64,000 bases of DNA from a phage. The notes below the pieces were generated by a model. That model had not been told where the DNA came from and made no database searches. It was given only the letters and a program-made list of their open reading frames with translations. Positions 511-22,014 of the stretch are shown in pieces; positions within the stretch are counted from its first letter, which is position 1; each line of letters begins with the position of its first letter. Both the position numbers and the translations under genes were made by a program. The DNA is taken from assembly GCA_012455605.1 (NCBI GenBank), contig GCA_012455605.1_3618.1. The stretch is one strand, 5' to 3'.

Positions 511-783
511 ATGTCAAGCTGGATTAATCAAGAAGTCGAATCACGTTTTAATGCTATTTGGGATCTCATCGAAAAAGAGGACGGAACATCAAGCCCTTAC
601 CTCAATAATCTTGAATTCCATTTTGTGGAAGCGATGAACGCAGAACATGATCACGAAGGTGGCGCGGATGATTTCGCTAAAGGTTATGGCTTTAACAATG
701 CCAACGAAATGATCGAGGCGGTCGTACTCCAGGCTGAGGAAGATTATCAATTAAAAACGCTTGAATTCTGCCGCCATAAGTAA
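511..783 (+). CDS. hypothetical protein (90 aa, acidic)
   Basis: ORF with SD-like gagaggaaaacatcATG; same RBS context recurs at the 844 and 1252 starts. Confidence 0.5.
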   Translation: MSSWINQEVESRFNAIWDLIEKEDGTSSPYLNNLEFHFVEAMNAEHDHEGGADDFAKGYGFNNANEMIEAVVLQAEEDYQLKTLEFCRHK

Positions 784-843
784 TAAGATAATGACACGGG
801 CCAAAAGGCCCGCTAATCAGAACCGCATAAAGAGGTAAACATC

Positions 844-1107
844 ATGAAACGTCTTGATCAGCTCAAACTAGTTCAGTACATGGCCTACAAAGTTCTTGAA
901 GTCCAAAAAGGTAGCAAAAAAGAGGTTTGCGAGAAAGCATATAAGATCTTTACCCGTAAAAAAGATGATTGGATGTTACGCCAGACCAAAAAAGCCGATA
1001 TCCTGGGGTACCTGGAAGAAGAGATCCGACTTGAAGAGCAAGAAGAGATCCGCCGCAGTGAAGCAGATTATCAGGCAGCTTGGGAAAACTGGATGAGTAA
1101 CAAATAA
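844..1107 (+). CDS. hypothetical protein (87 aa)
   Basis: ORF with RBS aagaggtaaacatcATG; hairpin after the stop. Confidence 0.5.
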   Translation: MKRLDQLKLVQYMAYKVLEVQKGSKKEVCEKAYKIFTRKKDDWMLRQTKKADILGYLEEEIRLEEQEEIRRSEADYQAAWENWMSNK

Positions 1108-1173
1108 TACAACAAGTTGCACGATCAGGGGGCAATAAAGCCCCTTGATCACATAAAAATTATGCTATCCTTA

Positions 1174-1202
1174 TTGACAAGGATCGGCAGTTTTGCTATA
1201 TT
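1174..1202 (+). promoter_or_regulatory. near-consensus sigma70 promoter (TTGACA-17-TATATT)
   Basis: TTGACA 1174-1179, 17 bp spacer, TATATT 1197-1202, about 50 bp upstream of the 1252 start. Confidence 0.6.
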
Positions 1203-1251
1203 CTTTTTTGAAGGGAAGTTGTAAAAAAATTAACTAAGAGGTAAAAACACC

Positions 1252-1671
1252 ATGAACATTAAATCTAATAATCCGGCATATAGCTTTGATAACGCTTTTT
1301 GTCACGGCCCGGCGGCGAAAGGATTCGAAATCGATGGTAAACTAATTATTGTCAATGTTGACGGGGAAGAGGTTGCAGTATATCCGGTGGCAGACGTAAA
1401 AAGCCGTTTACAATGCCGCATTGATGTTACCGCCTATCAGCTTGATCCGGTCCGCATAGTTGCCCTGGTCCTGGAAGAAGAAATTAAAGCCATGCACCAT
1501 AGCAACAGGTTTATTGGTGACGCCCAGGATAATATGAAGGTATGCCGCCATAAAGTTAATGAAGTGCTTAAAGAATATGGCTTTAAAGATCTGATGATCA
1601 AACGTGAGGAAAAATTCCGCTACCGTAACGACCTGGCAAATCGAATCTATGAAATATACGAATCATTATAA
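1252..1671 (+). CDS. hypothetical protein (139 aa)
   Basis: ORF with RBS aagaggtaaaaacaccATG, preceded by consensus promoter and followed by terminator. Confidence 0.55.
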   Translation: MNIKSNNPAYSFDNAFCHGPAAKGFEIDGKLIIVNVDGEEVAVYPVADVKSRLQCRIDVTAYQLDPVRIVALVLEEEIKAMHHSNRFIGDAQDNMKVCRHKVNEVLKEYGFKDLMIKREEKFRYRNDLANRIYEIYESL

Positions 1672-1689
1672 TTTCTTAACTAAACTATC

Positions 1690-3794: not shown

Positions 3795-4146
3795 GTTATC
3801 ACCCATATATCATATGGCAGTGACTGGTGTCCTCAGGCCCCTCTTTCGTCACCCGTCCGCTTCGCCATGCTAATGCCATAGCCAGTGGTTCGGTTGTTCA
3901 CCCTGTTCACTCAGGTGTATCTCCATACCCCTTCAAACCGAAGAGAACAGAAAACCCGAATTACTCGGTAAAAGAAAAGAGAAGAACTTAATTTTATCAG
4001 GATAGGCAAGAATGTCAAGGCATGACTGCTCACTAAACAAGCAAACAGTCATGTGTGGGAGGTAAGTGATTGTGGTGGTAGGAAATTTAGTTGAAAGATG
4101 TGTTATAGGTGCTCCCAGCACTTTTAGCCGGGCAGCTAGTTGTGTG

Positions 4147-18717: not shown

Positions 18718-19068
18718 TTACTGCAACAGTTTTTCAATAGCCGCTTCCATGCTGCTTGCAACAGCCTGAACTCGGATATTCATCTCTTCTTGGTGGATCA
18801 GCTCCTTAAGCTCTTTAATGGTAAATTCTTTAGAGAAACCTTCCACCATAATCTTGTGTAAGGCTTCTTGCGTGCCTACTTGCAAGAACTTTTCCAGTTT
18901 GTTGGCAGAGGCTTCTAAATCAGCCCGAATACGAGGGTCATCTGTGCGATTCAGCATTAGGCGTAAGCCATCAAGATTAGTAGAAATAGCGTCTGCATGT
19001 TGAGTAACTAACCGTGGCAAAATGAGATCTACAAACTTATTAGCCAAATCGATACGTTCTTGTGTCAC
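18718..19068 (-). CDS. hypothetical protein (116 aa, GTG start)
   Basis: ORF; GTG start overlaps the stop of the upstream small ORF (GTGA). Confidence 0.4.
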   Translation of the reverse strand: MTQERIDLANKFVDLILPRLVTQHADAISTNLDGLRLMLNRTDDPRIRADLEASANKLEKFLQVGTQEALHKIMVEGFSKEFTIKELKELIHQEEMNIRVQAVASSMEAAIEKLLQ

Positions 19069-19178
19069 TGTTGCACCCCCTCTTCATCCTCATGATATTT
19101 CTTTTCACGCTTGTGTTTTTTCTTAAGCTCAAGCGCAATTTCTTTTTTGTACGCCTTCTTCAAGGCTTTTTTAGCCAT
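19068..19178 (-). CDS. small lysine-rich ORF (37 aa: MAKKALKKAYKKEIALELKKKHKREKKYHEDEEGVQQ)
   Basis: strong SD GGAGGAGGTG 5 nt upstream of the ATG; below the 60 aa track cutoff. Confidence 0.3.
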
Positions 19179-19209: not shown

Positions 19210-19239
19210 ATTATACCTATCTAAACAAAACTTTGTCAA
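19210..19239 (-). promoter_or_regulatory. consensus sigma70-like promoter (minus strand, TTGACA-18-TATAAT)
   Basis: reverse complement of plus 19234-19239 is TTGACA and of 19210-19215 is TATAAT. Confidence 0.55.
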
Positions 19240-19242
19240 CAA

Positions 19243-19716
19243 CTAGTCTACCTGAACCCAACCGCCTGGTACTTTTTTAAACATTCTTTGGTTATCACTG
19301 CCTCGGAACGGTTTCTTGGTTGGTAAATCTTTTACATACTTACCGTCAATGATGATATCAGCCAGTTTAAGAACATCACTAGAGATATGGTCAAATGTGA
19401 ACCCAGTATATACAAGAATAGTTTTCTTGTCACCAAATTTTTCCTTAATTTTCTCCATCAAGCTAATAATATCTGGCTCATTATAGTATGCTAAGGGTTC
19501 TCCCCCCAGCAGAGAGATACCGCACACAGATGGGTTATCTAAATCTGACAAGATTTTTTGTAAATCTTCTTCAGTGAACTCTCTCCCCTTATCTTTTGAC
19601 CAAAATGCCTGATTAAAGCAACCAGGGCAAGCGTGTGGGCACCCAGATACCCACAAGGCAGTTCTAATACCTGGCCCTTCGGTGTAAGATATTTCTGCGT
19701 ATCCGACAATATTCAT
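19243..19716 (-). CDS. nrdG: anaerobic ribonucleotide reductase activating protein (radical SAM)
   Basis: GPGIRTALWVSGCPHACPGCFN (CxxxCxxC cluster); start placed at the second in-frame ATG (MNIVGY...), which fits the usual NrdG N-terminal length. Confidence 0.8.
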   Translation of the reverse strand: MNIVGYAEISYTEGPGIRTALWVSGCPHACPGCFNQAFWSKDKGREFTEEDLQKILSDLDNPSVCGISLLGGEPLAYYNEPDIISLMEKIKEKFGDKKTILVYTGFTFDHISSDVLKLADIIIDGKYVKDLPTKKPFRGSDNQRMFKKVPGGWVQVD

Positions 19717-19829
19717 AGATACTCCGCATCGCATTCAGGGCAATGCCAAATAAAATCGTCCAGTGCCTTGCACCAACGAAGATTGCAACGACAACCGCAC
19801 TTGCAAATTTTATAAATACCTGTAGACAT
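19716..19829 (-). CDS. small Cys-rich zinc-ribbon-like ORF (38 aa: MSTGIYKICKCGCRCNLRWCKALDDFIWHCPECDAEYL)
   Basis: hand-translated ORF between nrdD and nrdG; its TGA overlaps the proposed nrdG ATG. Confidence 0.35.
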
Positions 19830-19890
19830 ACTGTACCTCCTAGCTCGCTGTGCCAACAATATGCCACATCCTTGTGGATTTTGTCAAGTA

Positions 19891-22014
19891 TCAGCAACCA
19901 CAACTTCCGTAGTGCTTAACCCGTTCTATAACTTCCGCTTGCTTACCTTTATTGTAAGGACGGGAGTTTGGACTAGACAGGTACCCGGATACACGTCTGA
20001 TCACACTGATCGTTCCCTCTTCATGGTTTCCACACTCTGGGCATACAAAGCCTTTAGCTGTTGCACTAAACTCACCAGAGAAACCACACTTGAGACATTT
20101 ATCCACAGGTTGGTTAATACCAAAATACATAATGTGTTTATACCCGAAGTCAACAAGAGCCTCTAAAGCATCTAAATTGTTTTTCAGATTTGGTGTCTCT
20201 ACGTATCCGATGTTGCCGCCAGAGGAGATCATAGCAAAACCCTCCTCATACTCCCACTTATCAAAAGGAGAGCTATTGATCCACACTGGCTGATGGAAAC
20301 TGTTGGTGAGATATTCATGCTCGTGCTTCAACACTTCAGGATATTCACGATCCAGACAGGTTGCAGCTTTATAGCATAGACTCTCAGAAGGGGTGCCGTA
20401 CAAGCTAAACGCTAGTCTACTTTCCTTCTTGTATCGCTCACAAGCATCTCTCATGTGCTGAAGTATTCCAAGAGCTAAAGCCTTGTCACCCTCCCTGCCC
20501 AAAATCTGACAGGTTTCATACACACCAATATACCCAATACTGATGGAAGCGTACCCGTCATAGAAGAGTTTATCAATACTCTCTTCAGGATCCAGGCGAG
20601 CAAGAGCGCCTTCACACCACATGATAGGGTTCTGCCCTGCTTTGGTGCCTTTCAGACGGTTAACCCTTACAAGGTGAGCTTCATATGCCAAATCCAGATA
20701 CTCGTCAAGAACGGCAAAGAAATCAACACCTTCCGTCTTAGCTTTTGCCGCAATCATTGGCAGGTTAAGACTAACAACACCCAAGTTGAATCTGCCGAGG
20801 TATTTCTCCTCACCTGTTTCCAAGTCATTGTATTTGCTAAGAAAACTCCGGCAACCCATGCTCGTTACTTTGCCATCTGTCGAGCCTGTCACTTTACGAT
20901 TTAGTGGAACAGAAACAAAGTCAGGATAAATCCGCTCTGCAGAGCATTCCAGAGCTAATCGTTTCAAATCATAGTTGGGATCTCCAGGGCTCATGTTGAC
21001 ACCCTCTTCTAGGAAGAACAGCACTTTAGGGAACACAGGTGTGATACGTTCTTCACCAAGACCCATTTTGTGGACTTTCAAATAGTTTTTGGTAATCATT
21101 CTACCAAAGACCGAGGTATCCAGTCCTAAACTTAATGTGATGAATGGAGTTTGCCCGTTGACAGAGGTTAACGTATTGATTTGATAGAGCAAAGTCTGCA
21201 TGCTGTCAAATACGTCTTTATCTGTCATTTGCATTGCAACAGTCTCAGCATCTGGCAACCAATGTTCCTGGCAAAATTTAAGGTTCTTCTCATAGGTTGC
21301 TTCAGCATACTGTGCCAGATAATGATCAATATGGCTCATAGTCTGACCACCATATTGAGCACTAGCTACCGCACTAGAGATTTGGCTAAGGATTGTTGTT
21401 GCAACCCCTATTGACTTCGGCTTACTGACATGGGCGTTACCAATGTTGAATCCGTTTTCCAACATATCTGGATAATTTACTAAACAACAGTTTGTTAACG
21501 GACTGATCAAATAGTCAAGGTCATGCACATGGATGAAGCCTTTATTGTGCTCTTCGGAGACACGGTCTGGCAGGATCTGTGTCGATGCAAGGTGTTTGCT
21601 AAGGATGCCTGCAAGCAGGTCACGATGAGTGTGTACATGATTGGTAGGCTTATTTGCGTTTTCTTTTGTAAATTCATCACAAGTGCGATCCAGGAAGCCA
21701 CTAATATCTGCAAGCAGTTTTCCACCTGCCTCTCTGTTATTATCTCTTGTCTGCCTATACTGGATGTATTCTCTGGCTGCACATTTTAAACCCATATCCA
21801 TAAGAGCGTCTTCAACAAGGATATGGATATTTTTTACAGAGATCGTGCACTGGTCGGTTGGTAGATTGTTAGCAACAACTTCATTAACCGCGCAGGCGAT
21901 CCGGTAAGCTTCTTCTTCAGTATGTCCAGACTCAAGTAAGGCGGACTCTGCCGCCTTGATCACCTTAATTCCGTTATAGAACTCTTCTCTACCGTCCCGT
22001 TTTACAACTTTCAC
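19891..22014 (-). CDS. nrdD: anaerobic ribonucleoside-triphosphate reductase (class III)
   Basis: N-terminal ATP-cone-like MKVVKRDGREEFYNGIKV; C-terminal glycyl-radical motif RRVSGYL and Cys-rich zinc site. Confidence 0.85.
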   Translation of the reverse strand: MKVVKRDGREEFYNGIKVIKAAESALLESGHTEEEAYRIACAVNEVVANNLPTDQCTISVKNIHILVEDALMDMGLKCAAREYIQYRQTRDNNREAGGKLLADISGFLDRTCDEFTKENANKPTNHVHTHRDLLAGILSKHLASTQILPDRVSEEHNKGFIHVHDLDYLISPLTNCCLVNYPDMLENGFNIGNAHVSKPKSIGVATTILSQISSAVASAQYGGQTMSHIDHYLAQYAEATYEKNLKFCQEHWLPDAETVAMQMTDKDVFDSMQTLLYQINTLTSVNGQTPFITLSLGLDTSVFGRMITKNYLKVHKMGLGEERITPVFPKVLFFLEEGVNMSPGDPNYDLKRLALECSAERIYPDFVSVPLNRKVTGSTDGKVTSMGCRSFLSKYNDLETGEEKYLGRFNLGVVSLNLPMIAAKAKTEGVDFFAVLDEYLDLAYEAHLVRVNRLKGTKAGQNPIMWCEGALARLDPEESIDKLFYDGYASISIGYIGVYETCQILGREGDKALALGILQHMRDACERYKKESRLAFSLYGTPSESLCYKAATCLDREYPEVLKHEHEYLTNSFHQPVWINSSPFDKWEYEEGFAMISSGGNIGYVETPNLKNNLDALEALVDFGYKHIMYFGINQPVDKCLKCGFSGEFSATAKGFVCPECGNHEEGTISVIRRVSGYLSSPNSRPYNKGKQAEVIERVKHYGSCGC

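Follow-up and report, generated by a model that had tools for sequence, protein, structure and literature searches.

The 64,000-nucleotide stretch of phage DNA analysed here (the window; contig GCA_012455605.1_3618.1 of NCBI GenBank assembly GCA_012455605.1) carries on its minus strand the genes nrdD and nrdG for the catalytic subunit and the activase of a class III (anaerobic) ribonucleotide reductase (RNR), with a small Cys-rich open reading frame (ORF) lying between them (Table 1). The identities of both enzymes, as originally predicted from the letters of the sequence, were confirmed by Pfam and PHROG profiles; NrdG matches Fer4_12 at 9.5e-43 together with Radical_SAM, as well as PHROG 626 ('anaerobic RNR small subunit'), and NrdD has a C-terminal CxxC...CPEC zinc site of its own. 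The same strand holds, further upstream, ORFs sized like grx, nrdB and nrdA, in an order that agrees with annotated relatives, which places the small gene within a nucleotide-metabolism string, nrdA-nrdB-grx-nrdD-small gene-nrdG. At 90-99% identity, 122 phage records match the nrdD-nrdG region; they come from Escherichia phages in Vequintavirus, a genus of rV5-like myoviruses, and the window is from an rV5-like coliphage of this genus. The label 'Campylobacter phage' is borne by 19 of the 122 matching records.

Table 1. Features of the nrdD-nrdG interval and its flanking genes in the window.
Feature	Position	Strand	Details
nrdD, class III RNR catalytic subunit, 707 aa	19891..22014	minus	Pfam NRDD 7.8e-161, Gly_radical, ATP-cone
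Sigma-70-like promoter candidate, TTGACA-18 nt-TGgCATATT	19858..19887	minus	Within the 61 nt that follow the stop of nrdD; consensus scan
Shine-Dalgarno AGGAGG of the small ORF	19836..19841	minus	6 nt 5' of the ATG; read from the sequence
Seven-Cys mini-protein CDS, 38 aa	19713..19829	minus	ATG 19829-19827, stop TGA 19715-19713; PHROG 20137 member
Weak hairpin and T-run inside the small ORF	19760..19776	minus	Scan; 'terminator' annotation in phage Murica
Upstream ATG in the nrdG frame	19732..19734	minus	Alternative start named in the original prediction; not conserved
nrdG ribosome-binding site (RBS) GGAG	19722..19725	minus	5 nt 5' of the nrdG ATG, inside Ala-Glu codons of the small ORF
nrdG, class III RNR activase, 157 aa	19243..19716	minus	Pfam Fer4_12, Radical_SAM, PHROG 626; start set from relatives

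Translation of minus-strand positions 19829 to 19716 gives MSTGIYKICKCGCRCNLRWCKALDDFIWHCPECDAEYL, followed by the TGA stop codon, in agreement with the ORF as it had been predicted. The peptide contains one His and seven Cys residues (positions 9, 11, 13, 15, 20, 30 and 33), not the eight Cys of the earlier hand translation. In Cys content it ranks first among the 200 ATG-initiated ORFs of 30-60 aa in the window, corresponding to a binomial probability of 1.4e-4 per ORF and of about 0.03 after multiplicity is taken into account; this enrichment is beyond chance, but taken alone it is modest evidence. The length of the ORF is unremarkable in itself.

The coding status of the interval was assessed by comparing the window with the homologous interval from 16 related loci (17 loci altogether). 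The Cys-rich frame is the sole one of the six frames that is free of stops in all 17, and insertions and deletions are in-frame throughout, with +6 and +3 nt in phage SophiaRose yielding a protein of 41 aa, a 15-16-codon Lys/Glu-rich N-terminal extension in a separate lineage yielding 53-54 aa, and podovirus copies measuring 36 aa. Nei-Gojobori counts, which drew on 13 distinct core sequences, gave a pS of 0.7-1.0 (near saturation) against a pN of 0.04-0.11 for distant pairs over a 27-codon core, i.e. a pN/pS of about 0.05-0.1, and several pairs differ by 4-5 synonymous changes with zero non-synonymous ones. The conservation of the frame in related phages, which had been proposed as a check on the ORF, is thus borne out. 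The strong Shine-Dalgarno sequence of the small ORF is kept as AGGAGG or AGGAGA among Vequintavirus relatives, and in SophiaRose (after a GIY-YIG insertion) and phage ACG-C91, where DNA similarity to the window begins at the ATG of the small ORF, the unrelated upstream DNA still supplies an RBS, AAGGAG or GAGGA, at proper spacing. In three lineages (L006, L009 and L010) the 30-aa core of the small protein is 87-97% identical, against just 52-56% for NrdG (pN 0.32-0.36) and 77-87% for the C-terminus of NrdD. Since the open frame, the in-frame indels, the pN/pS values, the re-supplied RBS and the core identity all agree, this comparison of sequences shows minus-strand positions 19829-19713 to be a genuine protein-coding gene under very strong purifying selection. 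The gene offers a clean case of an ultra-conserved phage micro-protein, with a core more conserved than the flanking enzymes.

The original prediction also held that the stop of the small ORF overlaps the most plausible start of nrdG, and this is the case: the TGA shares two bases with the nrdG ATG at 19716-19714, forming an ATGA at 19716-19713. An ATGA-type junction is found in 13 of the 16 related loci; the junction reads GTGA in L010, and in L014 and L015 the small ORF ends with TAA without an overlapping start. The GGAG of the junction is retained at every locus compared. At 13 of the 17 loci the nrdG frame (or the frame of a ligase gene, where that gene follows) is closed by a stop that precedes the ATGA start by four codons; the conserved nrdG start is accordingly placed at 19716, and the interval does not code for NrdG. 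The further upstream ATG at 19734, named earlier as the alternative that would make the interval part of nrdG, occurs solely in genomes whose small protein has Glu (GAATGC) at residue 32, and it is not conserved. Translational coupling of the small ORF to nrdG is plausible from the ATGA overlap only; it is not required and may contribute little, because nrdG owns a GGAG site. The arrangement resembles ATGA coupling in phage and bacterial operons in that the stop of the upstream gene overlaps the start of the downstream one, with nrdG in Vequintavirus and with a ligase gene in the podovirus genus Vectrevirus, but it differs in that the downstream genes retain their own GGAG and in that the overlap is absent in rV5-type genomes.

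The ORF had been described as unannotated, which does not apply to the near-identical phages, many of whose records hold a CDS at this place. The small protein was detected by tblastn in 122 phage records, with about 120 Vequintavirus records carrying the gene, and in a sample of 60 records about three-quarters of the annotated ones hold a CDS under the tblastn match, variously named 'hypothetical protein', 'ribonucleotide reductase' or 'putative anaerobic ribonucleoside-triphosphate reductase'. Relatives annotate the small CDS at the equivalent position and coordinates, and the frame agrees in JES2013 gp108 (YP_008530353.1), Bas59_0164 (QXV77858.1), SophiaRose_118 and PMBT16. Several records miss the gene, among them those of Murica (where a 'terminator' is annotated), Gotham and some others (where the interval is empty) and rV5 (where ORF114 is called in another frame). 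An identical protein is deposited as GenBank AXU22564.1 (phage Pr121LW, 'hypothetical protein'), equivalent to UniRef100_A0A385F1U0, and occurs on 39 contigs. The peptide matches the HMM of PHROG 20137 from end to end (residues 1-38 against positions 1-38 of 38, E=2.3e-31), this family being the same gene without structural difference. The gene is therefore already in public annotation as an uncharacterised protein and is not new. The family label of PHROG 20137, 'ribonucleotide reductase', is a name by association, because the protein has no similarity to any RNR subunit, and it should go. The main value of the present analysis lies in annotation, as the ORF deserves calling in every Vequintavirus genome and several records miss or misframe it. 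What the sequence comparison appears to add is the proof of coding, a fixed start for nrdG, a core more conserved than NrdG, and a probable transfer between myoviruses and podoviruses into a variable small-gene slot. No study of the ORF was found in literature searches.

Searches of larger collections returned the same narrow set of relatives. A search of 5.8 billion proteins, queried with an alignment headed by the homologue of 41 aa from SophiaRose, returned 14 cluster representatives, all of them on phage contigs of roughly 135 kb or 45 kb. Three clusters of the family were examined and contain 46, 62 and 8 distinct sequences. When 1.84 billion representative proteins were scanned exhaustively with an HMM, three matches resulted, namely two family members and one spurious repeat protein. 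The genomes of 185,579 bacterial and archaeal species (GTDB) held zero relatives, scans of IMG/VR and of metagenomes confined the protein to the same two phage groups, and searches of PDB sequences, Pfam and NCBIfam gave nothing significant. Judging from these searches, relatives of the small protein outside these phages appear to be absent from the databases covered.

The invariant pattern of the family, C-x(1,2)-C-G-C-x-C-N-L-R-W-C-x9-C-P-x-C, includes all seven Cys. The first knuckle is of the CxC type in the window (C9-K-C11) and CxxC in the family members of 41-54 aa, the second knuckle is C30-P-E-C33, and three Cys in addition to those of the knuckles are invariant. An AF2 model built from a 13-sequence alignment places strands at residues 16-20, 25-30 and 35-37, with low confidence (mean pLDDT 66). 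When this model was compared with the PDB by Foldseek, the top matches were zinc ribbons of the Rpb9 type, of Thermus ZifS and of the N-terminal part of the Nudix hydrolase NudC (TMq 0.67-0.75, rmsd 1.1-1.5 Å over 33-34 residues), at E-values of about 0.6-1, which are not significant; in a fold search against viral models one family member alone was significant, the remainder being assorted small phage zinc fingers. Individual members gave sub-threshold Pfam matches to Zn_ribbon_NUD and zf-LITAF-like, and weak sequence matches were obtained to the haloarchaeal CPxCG mu-protein HVO_0758. With the zinc-ribbon mini-proteins (Rpb9/TFIIS, ZifS, NudC and HVO_0758) the peptide has in common that it is small, that its two Cys knuckles are spaced by about 18 residues and that a three-stranded sheet is predicted, but it has seven Cys instead of four, its first knuckle is CxC, and no match is statistically significant. 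Of the zinc-ribbon-like Cys/His arrangement originally proposed, the Cys part is in keeping with the knuckles, the predicted strands and, weakly, the ribbon matches; the His is not conserved and is unlikely to be a metal ligand, because Tyr replaces it in several members. It is moderately likely that the peptide is a small metal-binding module of the zinc-ribbon type, and 'zinc-ribbon-like' is a reasonable name for a predicted fold whose support is weak.

Other metal-binding families were considered. Rubredoxin has CxxCG...CPxCG knuckles about 29 residues apart and an aromatic core, whereas the knuckles of the small protein are spaced by 18 residues, and no match to the rubredoxin profile PF00301 was obtained at E-values up to 10 with any of the 13 members. 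A likeness by eye to the N-terminal zinc-finger part of the bacterial metallothioneins SmtA/BmtA (CxCxxCxCN[VL]...KA[IL]D...CxE(x)C), for which hhalign picks the same register, is at most a lead and is unsupported as a relationship to PF02069, with an hhalign probability of 1.2% and no Metallothio_Pro match. The idea that the ORF arose from a duplicated NrdD zinc ribbon was likewise rejected, as BLASTP against the NrdD of the window aligns 'CPEC' alone; no NRDD or Gly_radical Pfam match was found in the small protein.

The genomic surroundings of the gene fall into three types. In the window type, in which the ORF overlaps nrdG by ATGA (GTGA in L010), NrdG is at least 90% identical to that of the window in about 86 records. 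In the type represented by rV5, PMBT16 and L015, the small ORF ends with TAA and is followed by a 34-aa Lys-rich ORF, a 78-81-aa ORF and a divergent nrdG, whose product is about 52% identical to the NrdG of the window, the small protein itself being identical or nearly so. In SP6-like podoviruses (Vectrevirus ACG-C91, L011 and metagenomic contigs of about 45 kb) the gene is present without nrdDG; its 36-aa product is 83% identical in the core, and the gene lies between a nucleotide-kinase-like gene and an ATP-dependent DNA ligase gene, overlapping the latter by ATGA in ACG-C91 and L011. The link to nrdG that had been proposed as part of an anaerobic reductase operon is, given these arrangements, not obligatory. 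DNA similarity between podovirus and Vequintavirus copies extends from the ATG to 'TATGAATAT', i.e. over the ORF and the first codons (Met-Asn-Ile) of the downstream gene; the small gene appears to have moved between myovirus and podovirus lineages as an exact gene-sized cassette. In sister Vectrevirus genomes with identical flanks, the same slot is filled either by a four-Cys ribbon ORF of 38 aa that is unrelated (MTCPNCGSEETEHVVMSDTYHFYFCHSCDTTIEEEEAV) or by a Cys-free ORF of 57 aa, the kinase-ligase slot thus holding one of three cassettes including the small gene. The four-Cys slot ORF of SHAK7163 was rejected as a homologue of the small protein, since hhalign aligned one knuckle only (36% probability) and the DNA inside the ORF is unrelated. 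The presence of alternative cassettes at a fixed position in Vectrevirus is reminiscent of the variable small-gene slots of T7/SP6-like phages, with the difference that in Vequintavirus the gene is nearly universal and not sporadic. Where homing endonucleases have inserted after nrdD (GIY-YIG in SophiaRose, HNH in L010), the small ORF remains beside nrdG.

In other phages the interval looks different. Among the records listed in the NrdG tblastn search, those of phi92-like, Certrevirus and T4-like phages show nrdD immediately beside nrdG, without an annotated gene in the interval, and in RB16 the small ORFs that precede nrdG are not Cys-rich; a general pattern of a small Cys-rich ORF before nrdG was rejected from these loci. 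A single-protein locus scan with NrdG gave only two loci. Because the gene precedes the ligase gene in SP6-like podoviruses and is unchanged beside two very different nrdG alleles, its distribution suggests a self-contained, horizontally exchangeable accessory cassette in place of a dedicated NrdG subunit.

Several other explanations of the ORF can be weighed against these observations. The interval might not be a separate gene at all, being either the N-terminal part of an NrdG that starts at the ATG at 19734, which is in frame with nrdG in the window, or part of a 79-aa ORF in another frame (19664-19903, the frame of rV5 ORF114), the original rV5 record indeed annotating a 75-aa ORF across the interval in a different frame. 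With the nrdG frame running into a stop four codons before the ATGA at 13 of the 17 loci, stops in the alternative forward frame in eight of the 17, and neither frame accounting for the codon-position substitution pattern, the other-frame ORF and the N-terminally extended NrdG are both excluded by frame conservation, and this reading is scarcely credible. A decayed homing endonuclease, of which the ORF would be an HNH zinc-finger remnant in an insertion hot spot, would suit an interval that, like nrdD itself, has been invaded repeatedly by HNH and GIY-YIG genes in relatives, and the CxxC...NL..C...CxxC of the small protein presumably bears a loose resemblance to HNH zinc sites; strong purifying selection and a fixed length over hundreds of contigs are unlike a decaying fragment, no Pfam or PHROG endonuclease match was found at E-values up to 10, and such an origin is regarded as highly improbable. 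It is also very unlikely that the ORF is only a translated leader, serving to deliver ribosomes to nrdG or to govern an internal terminator hairpin by Cys-sensing attenuation, with the peptide as a by-product. The ATGA overlap, the seven Cys codons, which recall amino-acid-rich leader peptides, and the internal hairpin and T-run, which the Murica record labels a terminator, would all be expected of such a leader; but the amino-acid sequence is far more conserved than the synonymous sites, and the AEYL C-terminus and the whole core are kept where the stop does not overlap a start (L014, L015 and PMBT16). The hairpin folds at about -9 kcal/mol, its stem and T-run are both lost in L009, L010 and L011, the fold stability of the whole region is not unusual (z = -1.2), and no alternative antiterminator structure is evident. 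A reading as an RNA element, terminator or leader-peptide attenuator was rejected on the z-score and the lack of conservation of the hairpin and T-run, which probably just reflect the coding sequence.

A third component dedicated to the anaerobic RNR of the phage, which would bind Zn or Fe and assist NrdG or NrdD (perhaps by donating electrons as a rubredoxin does, or by acting as a cluster or zinc chaperone for glycyl-radical activation), is the reading suggested by the location of the gene, which virtually every Vequintavirus record places between nrdD and nrdG, by its staying beside nrdG where homing endonucleases have entered behind nrdD, by the overlap with nrdG in the window type, by the rubredoxin-style knuckles CxxCG and CPxC of the long variants, and by the name of reductase protein given by some annotators. 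However, synteny among the close relatives of a single genus counts for little, the phi92-like, Certrevirus and T4-like records listed have no annotated gene separating nrdD from nrdG (the small ORFs before nrdG in RB16 not being Cys-rich), and rV5-type genomes separate the small gene from nrdG. The gene is under selection before a ligase gene in podoviruses that lack nrdDG, and an identical peptide is found beside NrdG alleles that are only 52% identical to each other, so that the small protein and NrdG do not co-vary; nor is there a Pfam rubredoxin or NRDD match, 'CPEC' alone being common with NrdD. A dedicated accessory role for NrdG or NrdD is accordingly not supported, and a third RNR component is considered unlikely. 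A related possibility is that the seven-Cys protein is a metal-binding or redox partner that helps NrdG to install the glycyl radical on NrdD. Such a partner would act on conserved surfaces and could therefore also serve the NrdDG of the host in the anaerobic gut, where SP6-like podoviruses would bring in its gene. Because NrdDG is supplied by the E. coli host, the Vectrevirus case leaves room for a functional link to nrdG; host NrdDG and the near-universal synteny in Vequintavirus are the reasons for keeping this partner role in consideration, at a low probability and as a rather improbable one.

The explanation preferred here, and held to be probable in its full form, is that the ORF is a genuine accessory gene that encodes a predicted zinc-ribbon module, may pass ribosomes to nrdG by re-initiation, and belongs to an exchangeable cassette. 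An independent accessory function is argued for because phages without nrdDG carry the gene, because NrdG co-variation is absent, and because ORFs intervene before nrdG in rV5-type genomes. Of the seven Cys, the outer ones would pair as Cys9/Cys11 and Cys30/Cys33 to make the two knuckles, the three extra Cys could make a second or shared metal site, and the peptide would work by binding a partner, either a protein or a nucleic acid, in the phase of infection when DNA precursors are made and DNA is replicated. It is an ordinary yet well-supported small accessory gene and a reasonable candidate for functional study; if it proved to act in the activation of class III RNR, or to target the host, interest in it would rise, and no finding requires either.

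With regard to expression, the small ORF is likely to be co-transcribed with nrdG and, to judge from the overlap, at least partly co-translated with it. Ribosomes that finish the small ORF would re-initiate on nrdG, so that both proteins would be made together, from mRNAs that would arise by read-through of nrd transcripts and probably also from the sigma-70-like promoter candidate just downstream of nrdD. This candidate scores 10 of 12 consensus matches and has an extended -10 TG, and a predicted promoter is annotated at the equivalent place in the Gotham record.

The neighborhood of the small seven-Cys gene differs between related phages. In the second Vequintavirus arrangement, the rV5 type, the small ORF ends at a TAA stop and is followed by a 34-aa Lys-rich ORF, a 78-81-aa ORF and NrdG, in that order, and the NrdG of this type is only ~52% identical to that of the window. 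The rV5-type locus looks like one in which the nrdG end has been replaced by recombination. The 78-81-aa ORF is annotated as 'putative minor capsid protein' in rV5, a name that is probably a misnomer. Two variant products of the small gene were also found. P0014 (62 aa) begins with residues 1-20 of the small protein and continues with the C-terminal portion encoded by the 78-aa ORF, and is therefore a deletion variant. P0003 (61 aa), from phage Alma, results from a frameshift close to the C-terminus. Both are occasional disruptions of the small gene.

In SP6-like Vectrevirus, a nucleotide-kinase-like gene and the gene for DNA ligase enclose a slot with identical flanks and three alternative contents, and each of the three ORFs shares 4 nt with the start of the ligase gene. 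The four-Cys zinc-ribbon ORF of SHAK7163 is unrelated to the seven-Cys ORF. In relatives, both nrdD and the gap between it and nrdG are insertion hot spots for genes of HNH and GIY-YIG homing endonucleases, by which nrdD is broken up into two or three separate ORFs; in the window, nrdD is uninterrupted.

The 79-aa ORF overlapping the small gene in another frame corresponds to the frame called ORF114 in the original rV5 record, and is probably not a gene because it contains stops in 8 of the 17 loci compared (16 related loci and the window). Downstream of nrdG, the rV5 annotation designates the sigma-70 consensus as promoter P118 and the 37-aa ORF, which overlaps a following 116-aa ORF in the window, as a hypothetical protein.

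Features of the small-gene locus in the window and in relatives (L-numbers, extracted loci)
Feature	Position	Strand	Remark
Perfect sigma-70 consensus, TTGACA-18-TATAAT (12/12)	window 19210-19239	-	just 3' of nrdG
Conserved 37-aa Lys/Glu-rich ORF, MAKKALKKAYKKEIALELKKKHKREKKYHEDEEGVQQ	window 19065-19178	-	after sigma-70 consensus
79-aa ORF, other frame	window 19664-19903	-	spans entire small gene
Second Vequintavirus arrangement	L015 3117-3974; L017 (rV5) 1314-2175; L020 (PMBT16) 816-1674		downstream of small gene
Seven-Cys ORF	L004 (ACG-C91) 3998-4108		Vectrevirus slot
38-aa four-Cys zinc-ribbon ORF, MTCPNCGSEETEHVVMSDTYHFYFCHSCDTTIEEEEAV	L023 (SHAK7163) 673-789		Vectrevirus slot
57-aa ORF without Cys	L024 (vB_EcoP_B) 673-846		Vectrevirus slot
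Homing-endonuclease hot-spot examples	L005 1779-2939; L010 3279-3971 and 1-541; L009 2467-3261		also records MaxBurger, FFH2

Nineteen GenBank records (MG0656xx) are titled 'Campylobacter phage', with Campylobacter jejuni given as the host. Over the nrdD-nrdG region, these share 95-98% identity with E. coli Vequintavirus genomes, and their host labels look doubtful.
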